Part shown: positions 3,966 through 50,872 of the stretch, piece by piece
How the letters are laid out: each line of letters starts with the position of its first letter
Numbering within the stretch: the first letter of the stretch is position 1
Assembly: GCF_029227855.1 (NCBI RefSeq)
Contig: NZ_CP074356.1
DNA length: 64,000 nt
Direction: 5' to 3' (one strand)
DNA from: Escherichia coli
Lineage (GTDB): Bacteria; Pseudomonadota; Gammaproteobacteria; Enterobacterales; Enterobacteriaceae
Translations under genes and position numbers: made by a program
The notes under the pieces: model-generated
The model's input: only the letters and a program-made list of their open reading frames with translations
What the model was told of the DNA's origin: nothing
Database searches by the model: none

Positions 3966-4083
3966 TTAGTGACAAGCAGAGCAGAAGCACGCGACGGTGC
4001 GAATTTCCCCTCACCCTAACCTCTCCCAAAATGGGCGAGAGAATAGTCCGCGCGCTTTTATTGCAATGTCATCAATCGTTTAA

Positions 4084-4839
4084 TTAACTCATCGACAACA
4101 GTTGGTTGGCACGGCCTGCGTTATCATCGACGCTGCTGATCACCTTCATCTGCATTTCAAAACGCCGCGCGCTGGCAATCATGTCGCTCATTGCCGCAAC
4201 GGCATTGACATTACTGCCTTCCAGAACTCCCGACATCACACGCAAGGTTGGATCTGCCTGCAGTACCGGCCCACGCGTGGCCTGGCTTTCCGCGCTTAAA
4301 CGAAAAATGCCGTCGTCACCGCGCTGCACTTCGCTGCCCGTGGCTTTCACCAGTTTCAGACGCCCCACTGGCGCAACCGTATTTGCCGGATCGCCCGGAT
4401 TCAGCGCCGAGATTGTGCCATCGGCAGCAATAGTGATTTCCGCCCCTTCCGGCACAGCAATTGGCCCCGCCTCGCCTATCACCGGATGCCCCTGAATTGT
4501 CAGTTGCCCGGTGGGATCAACCTGAATGCTGCCATTACGCGTATACCCTTCGCTGCCGTCAGCGGTCTGCACGGCCAGCCAGCCATCCTGCTGCAACGCA
4601 ACGTCCAGCGGGCGCGAGGTGTAATCCATCTTGCCGGGCGTCATGTCTGCACCCGGCGTTGACGCCGTTACCAGCGTGCGCGTGGGCAGTGAAAGCCCTT
4701 CCACCGGCACTGCGCGCAAGGCGTTTAACTGCGCGCGAAAACCGGGCGTAGAGGCATTGGCCAGATTACTGGCGGTTACCGCCTGTTGATTCAACGTCTG
4801 GCTGGCTGCTCCCATCGCGGTATAAATTGCGTGATCCAT
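4084..4839 (-). CDS. flgF: Flagellar proximal rod protein FlgF
   Basis: 251 aa ORF, MDHAIYTAMGAASQTLNQQAVTASNLANASTPGFRAQ; operon position. Confidence 0.95.
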   Translation of the reverse strand: MDHAIYTAMGAASQTLNQQAVTASNLANASTPGFRAQLNALRAVPVEGLSLPTRTLVTASTPGADMTPGKMDYTSRPLDVALQQDGWLAVQTADGSEGYTRNGSIQVDPTGQLTIQGHPVIGEAGPIAVPEGAEITIAADGTISALNPGDPANTVAPVGRLKLVKATGSEVQRGDDGIFRLSAESQATRGPVLQADPTLRVMSGVLEGSNVNAVAAMSDMIASARRFEMQMKVISSVDDNAGRANQLLSMS

Positions 4840-6795: not shown

Positions 6796-7200
6796 TTATT
6801 GACCGAGCGTAAGGGTTTTCAGCATCATGCTTTTCACCGTGTTGAGCACTTCAACATTGGCCTGATAGCTGCGTGACGCCGACATGGTGTTAACCATCTC
6901 TCCGACGACATCAACGTTTGGCATTTTCACGTAGCCCTTTGCATCCGCCAGCGGATTACCCGGTTCATAAACCAGTTTGTCCGGGGCCTGACTTTCTATA
7001 ACATCGGCAACCTTTACGCCGCCTGTCGCAGCACCTGGTGCAGCGTTAACCTGGAATACCACCTGTTTTGCCCGATATGGCTGTCCATCGGGACCGGTCA
7101 CGCTATCAGCATTCGCCAGATTACTGGCCGCCACGTTCAGGCGCTGGGACTGGGCAGTTAACGCCGACCCGGCGATATCAAAAATATTCAGCAGTGCCAT
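6796..7200 (-). CDS. flgC: Flagellar basal-body rod protein FlgC
   Basis: 134 aa [37 protein letters not shown]. Confidence 0.95.
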
Positions 7201-7203
7201 CCG

Positions 7204-7620
7204 TTAATTTCCGCTCTGTAAAACGTTCATCATGCCTTTGATTTGCCCGCTCAACGCGCTAAGGCTCATCTGGTATTGCAGGCTGTTATCGGCAAACTGG
7301 GTGCGTTCGCGATCCATATCGACGGTATTACCGTCAAGCGAAGGCTGGTCCGGAATACGGTATTGCAGTTCTGCGGTAGGAGGCGTCAGCGCCTGCGCCG
7401 GAATGTGTTGCGTTGAGGTCATCGTCAGTGCAACCACACTGGTTGCATCCCGTCCACGTTGCATGACTTTTTTAAGTTCACTGGCAAAATCGATATCGCG
7501 CGCCTGATAACCAGGGGTATCGGCATTGGCGATGTTTGCTGCCAGCACTTCCTGACGCTGGGCGCGCAGATTGAGCGCCTCTTGTTGAAAACGTAAGGCG
7601 GCGTCGAGCTTATCGAGCAT
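7204..7620 (-). CDS. flgB: Flagellar basal-body rod protein FlgB
   Basis: 138 aa [48 protein letters not shown]. Confidence 0.95.
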
Positions 7621-15980: not shown

Positions 15981-16030
15981 TATCCTTTGTGTCCGGCAAA
16001 AACATCCCTTCAGCCGGAGCATAGAGATTA

Positions 16031-25126: not shown

Positions 25127-25224
25127 GCCAGATGTGGCGTGAACGCCTTATCCGACCTACAAAATCTTGCAAAATCAACACATTGCAGGAGCGATGTAGG
25201 CCTGATAAGCGTAGCGCATCAGGC
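25127..25224. repeat. REP (repetitive extragenic palindromic) elements
   Basis: REP-like units GCCAGATGTGGCGTGAACGCCTTATCCGACCTAC and GATGTAGGCCTGATAAGCGTAGCGCATCAGGC. Confidence 0.75.
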
Positions 25225-33692: not shown

Positions 33693-34403
33693 AATAAATA
33701 TCCTCCGGCATAGCCGGAGGTTTTTCAAATGCGCCTATAAGGCTCTCTTACCAGCCGCGCCCTAACAGGCGCACACGATCTGACATTTGCATCCAACTTC
33801 GTTACTTACGGCCCGTAAACGGGCTGCCCGGATAGGGAATCGATAACTGCTCTCCCATTTTATCCTCTTCAAGCTGGTGCTTTATGTAATCCTGTATCTT
33901 CGCCGTGTTCTTACCCACCGTATCGACGTAGTACCCTCTGCACCAGAACTCCCTGTTCCTGTATTTGAATTTCAAATCACCAAACTGCTCGTAAAGCATC
34001 AGACTGCTTTTCCCTTTCAGATATCCCATAAAGCCGGATACGCTCATTTTGGGCGGGATCTCCACAAGCATATGGATATGATCTGCACAGCATTCAGCTT
34101 CCAGAATCCGTACACTTTTCCACTCACACAGCTTTCTCAAAATACTGCCTATTGCTCTACGCTTCTCTCTGTAGAACACCTGTCTTCGGTATTTTGGCGC
34201 AAAAACTATGTGATATTTACAGTTCCATCGGGTGTGCGCTAAGCTCTTTTCGTTCCCCATTGGGACCCCCTTTTGATTTCTTGTTTGACACTTGCAGTTG
34301 CCAGACCGCAAGGTGTTTTAACAAATCAAAAGGGGTTTTAATAACTGGCTTAAAGCTGAAAGCTTTCCGGAACCCCCAGCCTAGCTGGGGGTTTTCTGTG
34401 CAC
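33693..34403 (-). mobile_element. IS200-type insertion sequence (IS200/IS605 family), about 0.7 kb, between the csgA terminator and the csgC RBS
   Basis: Y1/HUH transposase ORF flanked by subterminal hairpins (CCCCCAGC-TA-GCTGGGGG at 34372..34391; CCTCCGGC-ATA-GCCGGAGG at 33702..33720); the csgA-csgC spacer is about 770 bp here against a few tens of bp remembered for K-12. Boundaries are approximate. Confidence 0.8.
33802..34260 (-). CDS. tnpA: IS200 transposase TnpA (Y1 HUH single-strand transposase)
   Basis: ORF 33802..34311; start placed at MGNEKSLAHTRWNCKYHIVFAPKYRR (152 aa); HIHMLV HUH motif. Confidence 0.9.
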   Translation of the reverse strand: MGNEKSLAHTRWNCKYHIVFAPKYRRQVFYREKRRAIGSILRKLCEWKSVRILEAECCADHIHMLVEIPPKMSVSGFMGYLKGKSSLMLYEQFGDLKFKYRNREFWCRGYYVDTVGKNTAKIQDYIKHQLEEDKMGEQLSIPYPGSPFTGRK

Positions 34404-35400: not shown

Positions 35401-36155
35401 GTTGTCACCCTGGACCTGGTCGTACATTTAAGAAATTAAATCATTTCAACTTGGTTGTTAACGCAACATGTATTTTGTTAACGCTGCGTTACGATGGAAA
35501 GTATGTCTGCGGAAATATTTTTAATAACTCACCCGCGCGTTGTATTTTTCTTTTTTTGTTCATACCAAAGTATTAAAACCCACGTAAATACGCTGTTATC
35601 TACGCAAAAAAAAATATTTTGTTTTCTTTTAAATCTCCGTTTTCCGCAATCAAAAATCACCAGACAGCCATTCTTCTTGCCCGTCGCTGATTGCTGCGAT
35701 ATGTCTTGCGCACAAGCCGTGACAAACCTCGTCTTTTTGCAGTAAAAAATTGTCCACGGAGGTGTGAAGAAAAAACAACAACGTTTTACATGACGAAAGG
35801 ACTACACCGAAATATTTTTTATATGCATTATTAGTAAGTTAGCACCATTTGTATGATTTTTTAAAATTGTGCAATAAAAACCAAATGTACAACTTTTCTA
35901 TCATTTCTAACTTAACAAAACCTTAAGATTAACATTTTAATATAACGAGTTACATTTAGTTACATGTTTAACACTTGATTTAAGATTTGTAATGGCTAGA
36001 TTGAAATCAGATGTAATCCATTAGTTTTATATTTTACCCATTTAGGGCTGATTTATTACTACACACAGCAGTGCAACATCTGTCAGTACTTCTGGTGCTT
36101 CTATTTTAGAGGCAGCTGTCAGGTGTGCGATCAATAAAAAAAGCGGGGTTTCATC
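35401..36155. promoter_or_regulatory. Divergent csgBAC / csgDEFG regulatory region
   Basis: 755-bp AT-rich spacer between csgB and csgD starts, the known multi-factor curli control region. Confidence 0.8.
35960..35985. promoter_or_regulatory. OmpR binding site upstream of csgD
   Basis: GTTACATTTAGTTACATGTTTAACAC, direct GTTACAT repeats matching the known csgD OmpR site. Confidence 0.7.
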
Positions 36156-40528: not shown

Positions 40529-41506
<978 letters not shown>

Positions 41507-41700
41507 TTATCGTTATGATCTACAAAAGCCACCAGCATAACAAATCCGTGGTCGGTGGCAAAAAAAGCAGATTTCGCTTATTAAAACTGCATATTGATTG
41601 AAGTTTGAATAAACGCGCGATTTTTTAAAAAAGTTTGTTGACCTCAGGTCATGATTTCCCTAAATTAGCGCCCGTTCCAGCAAGACAGGAACAACAATTT

Positions 41701-41788
41701 GGTGAGGTGTCCGAGTGGCTGAAGGAGCACGCCTGGAAAGTGTGTATACGGCAACGTATCGGGGGTTCGAATCCCCCCCTCACCGCCA
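41701..41788 (+). tRNA. serX: tRNA-Ser (anticodon GGA), serX-type
   Basis: 88-nt GGTGAGGTGTCCGAGTGGCTGAAGGAGCACGCCTGGAAAGTG...GGTTCGAATCCCCCCCTCACCGCCA; long variable arm, encoded CCA; terminator follows. Confidence 0.93.
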
Positions 41789-41799
41789 TATTTAAAGAA

Positions 41800-41830
41800 G
41801 AGCTCGTACGAAAGTACGAGCTTTTTTTTT
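41800..41830 (+). terminator. Rho-independent terminator after serX
   Basis: GAGCTCGTAC-GAAA-GTACGAGCT followed by TTTTTTTTT. Confidence 0.85.
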
Positions 41831-41893
41831 CGTATATTGCATAGACCGGGGGGATGAGAAGCCCCAGGCGGAGGTCGACAACTAGCGACAGAC

Positions 41894-43261
41894 TCATTCA
41901 TCATCCTTGCGGTTGATAAGAATTTCTGCCTCTTTTACTACCACCTTATTACGCCCGGTCTCTTTCGCCTCGTAAAGTGCGTTATCAGCCAGTTGATAGA
42001 TCTCCTTAGGGTTTAACTCATTTTTCTGCGTTACAACAGCGCCAATACTAATCGTCACTTTTTGTGGTATGGCGTATTCAGGATTATCACCAGTTAAACG
42101 CTCAACATTTTCCCGAATCCTTTCCGCTAAAGCTTTCGCACGTTCAGTATCGATGTCCGTCAGCAAGACGCCAAACTCTTCGCCGCCGACGCGCGCAAAA
42201 AGGTCATCTGGCCGTATGCTTTTCCCAATGATACTCACCACTGTTTTTATCACCTGATCGCCAACCGGATGCCCCCAGGTGTCGTTGACTTTTTTGAAGT
42301 GGTCGATATCCATAATCATGACGCAATAAGGCGTTTTTTTGGCCGATGCTGATTGAACTGTCAGTTCATTAAAAAAATAATTTCTGTTAAATATATTGGT
42401 TAAGGAATCGCGATGTGCAATGTCCTTTGTTACTCGTAGCGCACTGAATATATGGCACATAAATATTACCATAACGGTTAACTTACTGACTACTTCAATA
42501 GTGCGACTAATATACCAAATGGACACGCTATACCTGCTCATAAATAAAAGAGAGACATTGTACAGTACGGCACAAAAAGCAATCACCGTCACTCCATTCC
42601 AGATATCACAGCGTAAACCATTAAAGTATAGATTAACTGAAAGCAAGGTTAACCACATGAAAATCATTATGGTAACATATGATGTTTTCCAAACCACCTG
42701 ATCATTTTCATTGGTTAACTCGGCAATGTGTAAATTGTAGCTCTCATAATGACTAGAAAGTATGTGAGCAACTATCGGCCCCCCAACAACAAAAAACAAA
42801 CTTATGCACAAAGTCATTTTTTTAGAAAATAAATTGCGCTGTTTTGTGTTTTCACTAACTTTATTCACCAATGCCAGAAATATTAATATGCACAAACTCA
42901 TCTGACGAAACAAATAATAGATTGCAATGTCATTTTGAACAACACTGCTTGTCAAACGCCCCTCAATAATTTGCTGAATGATAATGACGGTTTTAACAAA
43001 GTAAATCAAACAACTCAGAAAAGCCAAACTAAGTATACAGTTTGAAAATTGCCTACGGTCATAAATGAAATACAACTGCATAAAAATAAATGCAACAGTA
43101 TCGATAAAAAATAAAGCAATCATTACCATCAGATAGGTTGATCGTGGAACAACTTCCTCAACGCCTGGCTGATTAAACCAACTATTCACCAAAACCAAAG
43201 CAAGCCCAAACAATAAGCTCACTAATACAGTACTACTAATTCTCAAATAGTCTTTTTCCAT
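41894..43261 (-). CDS. dgcT: Diguanylate cyclase DgcT (YcdT), membrane sensor with GGDEF domain
   Basis: ORF 41894..43384; start placed at MEKDYLRISSTVLVSLLFGLALVL; GGEEF active-site motif (RVGGEEFGVLL). Confidence 0.9.
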   Translation of the reverse strand: MEKDYLRISSTVLVSLLFGLALVLVNSWFNQPGVEEVVPRSTYLMVMIALFFIDTVAFIFMQLYFIYDRRQFSNCILSLAFLSCLIYFVKTVIIIQQIIEGRLTSSVVQNDIAIYYLFRQMSLCILIFLALVNKVSENTKQRNLFSKKMTLCISLFFVVGGPIVAHILSSHYESYNLHIAELTNENDQVVWKTSYVTIMIFMWLTLLSVNLYFNGLRCDIWNGVTVIAFCAVLYNVSLLFMSRYSVSIWYISRTIEVVSKLTVMVIFMCHIFSALRVTKDIAHRDSLTNIFNRNYFFNELTVQSASAKKTPYCVMIMDIDHFKKVNDTWGHPVGDQVIKTVVSIIGKSIRPDDLFARVGGEEFGVLLTDIDTERAKALAERIRENVERLTGDNPEYAIPQKVTISIGAVVTQKNELNPKEIYQLADNALYEAKETGRNKVVVKEAEILINRKDDE

Positions 43262-50083: not shown

Positions 50084-50872
50084 TTAACTGTATGCATGTA
50101 GCGTACGTTGGCAAAGTGCCGAACGTACGCAATCCTCTTTACCGAATCGGACGATCCCGACCATTTCATCTTCTTCGAAACGTTCCAGCGCGTCACTTAA
50201 TCCGGAGCGCACGCCGCGAGGCAAATCGCATTGCGTGATATCACCGTTGACGATAACCGTCACGTTCTCCCCGAGGCGGGTTAAAAACATTTTCATTTGC
50301 GCGGCAGTCACATTCTGCGCCTCGTCAAGAATGACGACTGCATTTTCAAAGGTACGTCCACGCATATAGGCGAACGGCGCAATTTCCACCTTCCCTATTT
50401 CCGGTCGCAGGCAGTACTGCATAAAGGAAGCCCCTAAGCGCCGGACCAGCACGTCGTAGACCGGACGAAAATAGGGAGCAAACTTTTCTGCGATATCTCC
50501 AGGTAAGAAGCCAAGATCTTCATCGGCTTGCAGAACTGGACGGGTGACGATAATCCTGTCGACATCCTTATGTATCAGGGCCTCTGCCGCTTTTGCTGCG
50601 CTGATCCAGGTTTTTCCGCACCCGGCTTCGCCCGTGGCGAATATCAGCTGCTTACTCTCAATAGCCTTCAGATAGTGCAATTGCGCTTCATTTCGCGCGA
50701 GGATGGGCGAGGTATCGCGACTGTCGCGGGCCATACCAATGGCTTCTACGCCGCTCATCTGCACAAGCGAGGTGACCGATTCTTCTTCACGCTGCTTATG
50801 GCTGCGCGAATCCCGTCTCAGCACACGTTTTGCCTCGCGACGAGCTTTGATCACTGCTTTTTGTCTTCCCAT
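50084..50872 (-). CDS. phoH: Phosphate-starvation-inducible ATPase PhoH (conserved core); upstream start unresolved
   Basis: Core MGRQKAVIKARREAKRV...GEAGCGKTW (Walker A) to ...LHAYS. Same frame stays open up to a GTG at 51007; a different-frame ATG at 51147 opens a 98-codon ORF that ends at 50851. Confidence 0.85.
   Translation of the reverse strand: MGRQKAVIKARREAKRVLRRDSRSHKQREEESVTSLVQMSGVEAIGMARDSRDTSPILARNEAQLHYLKAIESKQLIFATGEAGCGKTWISAAKAAEALIHKDVDRIIVTRPVLQADEDLGFLPGDIAEKFAPYFRPVYDVLVRRLGASFMQYCLRPEIGKVEIAPFAYMRGRTFENAVVILDEAQNVTAAQMKMFLTRLGENVTVIVNGDITQCDLPRGVRSGLSDALERFEEDEMVGIVRFGKEDCVRSALCQRTLHAYS

Follow-up and report, generated by a model that had tools for sequence, protein, structure and literature searches.

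The tRNA-Ser gene serX as a very probably unoccupied integration hotspot in an Escherichia coli core region

We analysed a stretch of 64,000 nucleotides (64 kb) of Escherichia coli DNA, called the window below, around the tRNA-Ser gene serX and its convergent neighbour dgcT. In the window, the serX site is very probably the unoccupied attB of a documented integration hotspot. We put the probability at about 0.9, a figure that covers the whole explanation: the anatomy of the junction, its emptiness, the integration model and the ancestral standing of the gene-free order. An empty serX is the ordinary state of this known hotspot, whereas in many other strains a large pathogenicity island occupies the site.

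The serX gene and its surroundings

The only tRNA that ARAGORN detected in the window was a tRNA-Ser(GGA) at 41701-41788 on the plus strand, with a long variable arm and a GGA anticodon in its cloverleaf. The Rfam tRNA model RF00005 matched it at 53.8 bits (gathering score 29). It was identical at 88/88 positions to K-12 serX (b1032) and also at 88/88 positions to the paralog serW. Because the serX and serW sequences are identical, the name serX was taken from the ghrA-ycdXYZ-csg context. The tRNA lies between ghrA and the dgcT/pga side, with ghrA followed by ycdX, ycdY, ycdZ and csgGFED, and dgcT on the far side followed by pgaABCD; serW sits at infA-clpA instead. The annotation of E. coli JNEC-KY178, which is 99.98% identical to the window, confirmed this context, and according to it the window contains core genes only, from flgK to rutB. 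The identification of the tRNA from 41701 onwards as serX, made in an earlier sequence-only reading of this DNA, was thus borne out. The features of the junction are as follows.

40529..41467, minus strand: ghrA (glyoxylate/hydroxypyruvate reductase A), the conserved left flank; open reading frame and JNEC-KY178 annotation
41638..41666, plus strand: candidate sigma-70-like promoter upstream of serX, TTGACC-17-TAAATT; consensus scan, 9/12 matches
41701..41788, plus strand: serX, tRNA-Ser(GGA), intact, CCA encoded; ARAGORN, Rfam RF00005 and K-12 identity
41770..41891, plus strand: single partial repeat unit, its first 122 bp (19 nt of the tRNA 3' end, terminator and spacer); 92% to three further K-12 copies
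41775..41788, plus strand: att core CCCCCTCACCGCCA, 14 nt, the last 14 nt of serX; a single copy, as in an empty attB
41801..41831, plus strand: native intrinsic terminator of serX, with a GC-containing stem of 9-10 bp, a GAAA loop and T9; fold and inverted repeat
41832..41893, no strand: remainder of the spacer from the terminator to the dgcT stop, 62 bp, too short for cargo; sequence
41894..41936, minus strand: lineage-specific 3' tail of dgcT, encoding …VVVKEAEILINRKDDE and stop beyond the GGDEF domain; comparison with K-12 …VVVRDVVNFCESP and stop
41894..43261, minus strand: dgcT, diguanylate cyclase with MASE4 and GGDEF domains, convergent with serX; Pfam MASE4 2.8e-69, GGDEF 2e-50, and annotation

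The match to the promoter consensus suggests that the element at 41638-41666 may drive serX. Downstream of the CCA end, a hairpin (41801-41822) is followed by nine T residues (41823-41831), and the whole 105-nt serX-dgcT spacer folded at -36.6 kcal/mol (z = -5.05 against shuffled sequences). The terminator is A-rich on its other side, so that it is possibly bidirectional and could serve the convergent dgcT as well. The dgcT stop codon occupies 41894-41896, and its distance from the end of the T-run was measured as 62 bp, in line with the earlier estimate of about 60 bp between terminator and dgcT 3' end. No ORF or family match of note was found in the 41832-41893 remainder of the spacer, and a permissive Rfam search of 41600-42000 gave nothing credible besides the tRNA. 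Rfam rows for sX4, MicC and Thr_leader scored far under their gathering scores; they were caused by the tRNA T-arm or the terminator and were discarded.

Several features were observed elsewhere in the window. An IS200C-type insertion occupies 33699-34403 in the csgC-csgA intergenic spacer, with its transposase ORF at 33802-34260 on the minus strand (Pfam Y1_Tnp, E = 3.8e-38) and an Rfam STnc490 match at 34270-34393. This copy is absent from the otherwise 99.98% identical JNEC-KY178, and the csgC/IS200 junction was present in 7 of 5,426 complete E. coli genomes. Rfam matches at gathering level comprised the Ysr251 antisense RNA near pgaD/phoH (50089-50282, plus strand, 192.8 bits), the ES056 sRNA upstream of csgD (36009-36100, plus strand), and ES036/CssrF and the PyrC leader, listed with matches at 25161-25203 and 15981-16030, both on the plus strand. 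All four are expected features of this core region.

Empty and occupied states of the serX site

Counted over both strands, the att core occurs once in the 64 kb. A second copy of the tRNA 3' end was searched for across the 64 kb with a 25-mer and a 17-mer (up to 3 mismatches) and with an exact 14-mer and 10-mer, and none was found; the last 15-20 nt of serX, which the sequence-only reading had proposed as a probe, likewise had no copy beyond the tRNA itself. Searches of the whole window by tblastn detected no remnant of an integrase, YcdU, InsF or YmdE (best E = 0.044, chance level), and the integrase of the UTI89 serX island, used as the query, reached E = 0.4 at best. Between serX and dgcT there is no IS3, ymdE, ycdU or other cargo in the window. 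The earlier statements that neither an integrase nor a direct repeat nor cargo follows serX, and that IS3, ymdE and ycdU are missing, therefore hold, on the 3'-end searches, tblastn, the annotation and the sequence. The single core and the native terminator directly after the tRNA indicate that no element is integrated at serX.

The serX gene is a documented site of pathogenicity islands (PAIs), where the 62-kb PAI-UTI89-serX has been placed (PMC7545054). The SRL PAI at serX is flanked by 14-bp direct repeats and undergoes int-dependent precise excision at about 1e-5 (PMC7545054). We read the occupied site of UTI89 in detail. Its order is dgcT, a tyrosine integrase with Arm-DNA-bind_3, Phage_int_M and Phage_integrase domains, cargo, a CbtA/CbeA-DUF4942 module and serX, and CCCCCTCACCGCCA stands at both ends of the island. 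At the tRNA end an island-borne terminator follows the CCA; beyond the core at the opposite end come precisely the spacer and dgcT tail of the window. When PAI-UTI89-serX was removed in silico between the 14-nt repeats, the rebuilt junction was identical to window 41401-42300 at 894 of 901 positions (99.2%). UTI89 without its island thus rebuilds the window junction, which demonstrates the unoccupied state directly.

Other strains showed the same two ends. In LTC201 an island longer than 50 kb precedes an attR that matches UTI89 and the window sequence, and in both LTC201 and UTI89 a second copy of the core lies where the island meets dgcT. In O26 RM10386 and N780 the attL carries the island's own terminator directly after the CCA, and CP4-like island modules (CbtA/CbeA, DUF4942) adjoin serX. 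Compared with PAI-UTI89-serX and PAI-CFT073-serX (ExPEC islands with S/F1C pilus, salmochelin and Ag43), the window has the same chromosomal site, 14-nt core and attR-side dgcT tail and spacer, but no island, integrase or second core. The SRL PAI and the EHEC OI-48/LAA-type islands also use serX/serW, whereas their elements or remnants are absent from the window. The repeat length of 14 bp agrees with the report on the SRL PAI and the attL and attR ends match, so that the window represents the attB state of the documented hotspot.

In the mechanism that we propose, the last 14 nt of serX (CCCCCTCACCGCCA) would be the attB core for the P4-type tyrosine integrases of islands targeting serX/serW. 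Recombination within the core would keep the tRNA intact and place an island-supplied terminator behind it; the native terminator, the spacer and dgcT would be shifted to the far end of the island, after the 14-nt direct repeat and beside the integrase gene. In this model the window has kept an intact serX with its own putative promoter and intrinsic terminator, tail-to-tail with dgcT, and its site is predicted to be an integration-competent attB for a cognate integrase.

The K-12 interval, tandem units and population frequencies

In K-12 MG1655 the order is dgcT, IS3D (insE4/insF4), the ymdE pseudogene, ycdU and serX, so the content that the sequence-only reading had given for K-12 (IS3, ymdE and ycdU between dgcT and serX) was correct. 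The serX-dgcT interval is 3.3 kb in K-12, as against 105 bp in the window, which has neither IS3D nor ycdU nor ymdE, a truncated ACP S-malonyltransferase gene. The two loci agree in the tRNA (identical), in the first 103 bp downstream (about 92-98% homologous) and in the ghrA and dgcT flanks. They differ in the end of dgcT. The C-terminus of DgcT reads ...NKVVVKEAEILINRKDDE and stop in the window and ...NKVVVRDVVNFCESP and stop in K-12, so that the window protein is not of the K-12 type, lacking the ...RDVVNFCESP end, and nothing in the K-12 locus corresponds to the 43-bp tail of the window (41894-41936). The K-12 tail differs because the ycdU-ymdE segment adjoins dgcT at that point. The GGDEF domain ends at residue 439 and the change lies past it, which indicates that the K-12 segment adjoins dgcT, takes the place of its end and is not seated in the tRNA core.

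Behind serX, K-12 carries three full tandem units of 181 bp and a partial one (3.4 units). Each unit opens with the final 19 nt of the tRNA and includes the terminator again; three extra att-core copies are thereby present (4 cores in all), and Rfam scores two of these units as RtT at 46.3 bits (gathering score 45). The window spacer corresponds to the proximal 122 bp of the unit that elsewhere forms arrays scoring as tyrT-type RtT repeats (RF00391), and the distal 59 bp of the unit are missing. In contrast to those arrays, the window holds one truncated unit without tandem repetition: it had no RtT (RF00391) match at the gathering threshold or at E<=10, and no tandem array was present at its serX, where the core is single and a repeat search showed no such family.

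The 181-bp units, labelled RtT sRNA (PGAP, Rfam), were observed to trail both serX and its paralog serW. In the extracted loci the arrays lie at 6962-7583 for K-12 serX (L001) and at 4020-4400 for serW (L040/L041). The number of units varies from 1 to 4 between genomes and each carries an extra 14-nt att core. Three cores were counted in the divergent Escherichia genome SCPM-O-B-8794 (L007), and four each in 2020CK-00188, K-12 and O150:H6 FEX669, in the last behind an island integrase; O6:H16 is of the ycdU type without tandem units. A literature search of limited reach found nothing on tandem arrays at serX.

Junction frequencies were counted in 5,426 complete RefSeq E. coli genomes, a heavily biased sample in which genomes are not phylogenetically independent.

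Compact form, the 900-bp ghrA-serX-dgcT stretch contiguous: 1,157/5,426 (21%)
Window-type spacer and dgcT tail: 1,436/5,426
Window-type tail with a multi-unit array: 54/5,426
ycdU present: 2,663/5,426 (49%)
IS3 and ycdU as in K-12: about 1,803/5,426

The sequence-only reading had asked how the serX-dgcT junction compares across E. coli genomes; at 1,157/5,426 the compact form is not universal. The difference between 1,436 and 1,157 leaves about 279 genomes with an insertion between serX and a window-type spacer, among which the examples read (UTI89, LTC201 and FEX669) all carry integrase-bearing islands. ST131, APEC O1 and UTI89 are among the genomes with the window-type tail, a form that may belong mostly to a single phylogroup.

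The remaining quarter of the genomes includes forms like that of EcPF15, in which dgcT and the whole of pgaABCD are missing and just one gene, encoding a DUF2726 protein, separates serX from phoH (L035 7389-8755). The breakpoint of this type falls within the spacer, at the equivalent of window position 41865. An evenly spaced sample of matches from the compact-junction search gave an estimate of about 5% of genomes for the class without dgcT-pgaABCD.

Origin of the compact junction

The gene-free order of serX and dgcT is likely ancestral, and the arrangement with ycdU, ymdE and IS3 derived. This reading draws on five lines of evidence: a divergent relative, the tails of other DgcT clusters, 2020CK-00188, plasmid-borne copies, and the 43-bp tail that K-12 lacks. 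The relative (L007), deposited as E. coli SCPM-O-B-8794 and belonging to a divergent Escherichia (a separate GTDB species), shows 83-89% identity over 16 kb (about 86%). Its order is pga-dgcT-serX-ghrA with no gene between dgcT and serX, its junction is as in the window (…GGCGACAG|A…, CGACAG|A), and its DgcT tail, …TEAENLMNWKDDD and stop, is homologous to that of the window. The outgroup consists of this one genome of another species, and the DgcT contig scan, which relies on exact peptide words, found it as the one close relative; apart from a 214-bp contig described below, the other matches were generic GGDEF domains at 31-44% identity. DgcT clusters at 89%, 86% and 76% identity have tails of the KEAEI(L/H)IN(C/R)KDDD type or closely related ones, and the RDVVNFCESP tail was confined to the K-12-type cluster and one other, P0032, apparently a K-12-type sequence of poor quality. 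E. coli 2020CK-00188 (L042) combines a gene-free junction with the window-type dgcT tail, and plasmid-borne pga-dgcT copies carry 70 bp of the window's spacer. The K-12 state would then be a derived insertion of ycdU and the ymdE fragment, with IS3 added later, which would also have replaced the last codons of dgcT. We infer this direction of change; the anatomy, the emptiness, the frequencies and the states of related lineages were read directly from the genomes.

The plasmid copies were found in two assemblies labelled Salmonella enterica (GCA_013595525.1 and GCA_007808745.1; L043/L044 1-6536), where pgaABC(D)-dgcT is about 91% identical to the window and adjoins the plasmid genes TraG_N, TraT and Rep3_N. 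The homology continues for 70 bp beyond the stop codon of dgcT and reaches the serX terminator (window 41823), so that the module was apparently acquired from an Escherichia chromosome whose junction was gene-free. A 214-bp contig (L011) in the assembly of Methylobacterium organophilum NBRC 15689 codes for part of a DgcT, with 87% identity to its E. coli counterpart, and is most likely Escherichia contamination.

The compact junction of HH97 (L046 575-760) was also observed to be gene-free, with a repeat unit and a dgcT body that resemble those of K-12. The final 37 bp of this dgcT are of the window type with a 1-bp frame difference (tail ...VVVRDVRNSYQPQG and stop), and the HH97 junction indicates that the K-12 ycdU segment has its left edge just after ...GGGATGT. 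It is probably a recombinant, found in 1/5,426 genomes, and was therefore rejected as a second independent compact class.

Other routes to the compact junction differ widely in how well they account for these data. Loss of ycdU-ymdE, with or without IS3, from a K-12-like state is highly improbable. The IS3 copy and the tandem repeats could promote deletions, and in O6:H16, a member of the K-12 type, repeats have been lost; however, the window-type tail is common to divergent Escherichia and to other DgcT lineages, and because the 43-bp tail is absent from the K-12 locus the compact form is no deletion derivative of the K-12 form. We therefore rejected this route. Past occupation of the site, with the island lost by precise excision through integrase and excisionase and attB restored, is unlikely. 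The roughly 279 genomes with window spacer and tail behind a serX insertion would fit it, as would the precise int-dependent excision of the SRL PAI at about 1e-5 (PMC7545054) and the occupied sites of close relatives such as UTI89, the rebuilt empty site of which is 99.2% identical. Against it, empty sites are about four times as common as occupied ones of the window type. An attB restored by precise excision bears no scar, so that a never-occupied and a re-emptied site look identical and the sequence gives past occupation no support over a site that was never occupied.

The sequence-only reading had called the junction compact and possibly ancestral. The gene-free order is supported by L007 and the tails; the single unit, on the other hand, makes the window's junction the most compact of the gene-free forms and may be secondary, as those relatives carry two or three extra tandem copies of the tRNA 3' end with its spacer. 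At slightly better than even odds, the single unit arose by collapse of a tandem array at an ancestral gene-free junction, each unit of which had an att core. The array would have been deleted when the tRNA core or unit recombined with the last unit, by homologous recombination or through an integrase in the course of island excision. Arrays exist in L007, 2020CK-00188, FEX669 and K-12, and at the serW locus, and the distal 59 bp of the unit are missing from the window. An array becomes a single unit by one deletion, while the reverse requires import of 59 bp, which leans slightly towards the collapsed array. This is opposed by the numbers, since about 1,100 single-unit genomes stand against 54 multi-unit genomes with the window-type tail, and arrays could also have spread from serW by gene conversion. 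We regard as doubtful the further proposal that the single-unit junction is a scar, in which island and array were deleted together between the tRNA core and the last array core, possibly by integrase catalysis. If it were true, RtT-like arrays would offer several attB sites and be substrates of island traffic, their loss being a by-product.

That islands insert at serX was already well known, as were both states of the site, empty and occupied, and the K-12 arrangement. These results leave the picture of a classical, well-documented integration hotspot as it was, and their practical value is small. A strain without a pathogenicity or resistance island at serX is useful for typing and as a clean attB choice in engineering. 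The sharing by serX and serW of arrays with extra att cores may interest students of the origin of tRNA-linked repeats. For E. coli, the polarity of the K-12 oddity is the point of note: ycdU, ymdE and IS3, together with the K-12 C-terminus of DgcT, would be derived rather than ancestral.
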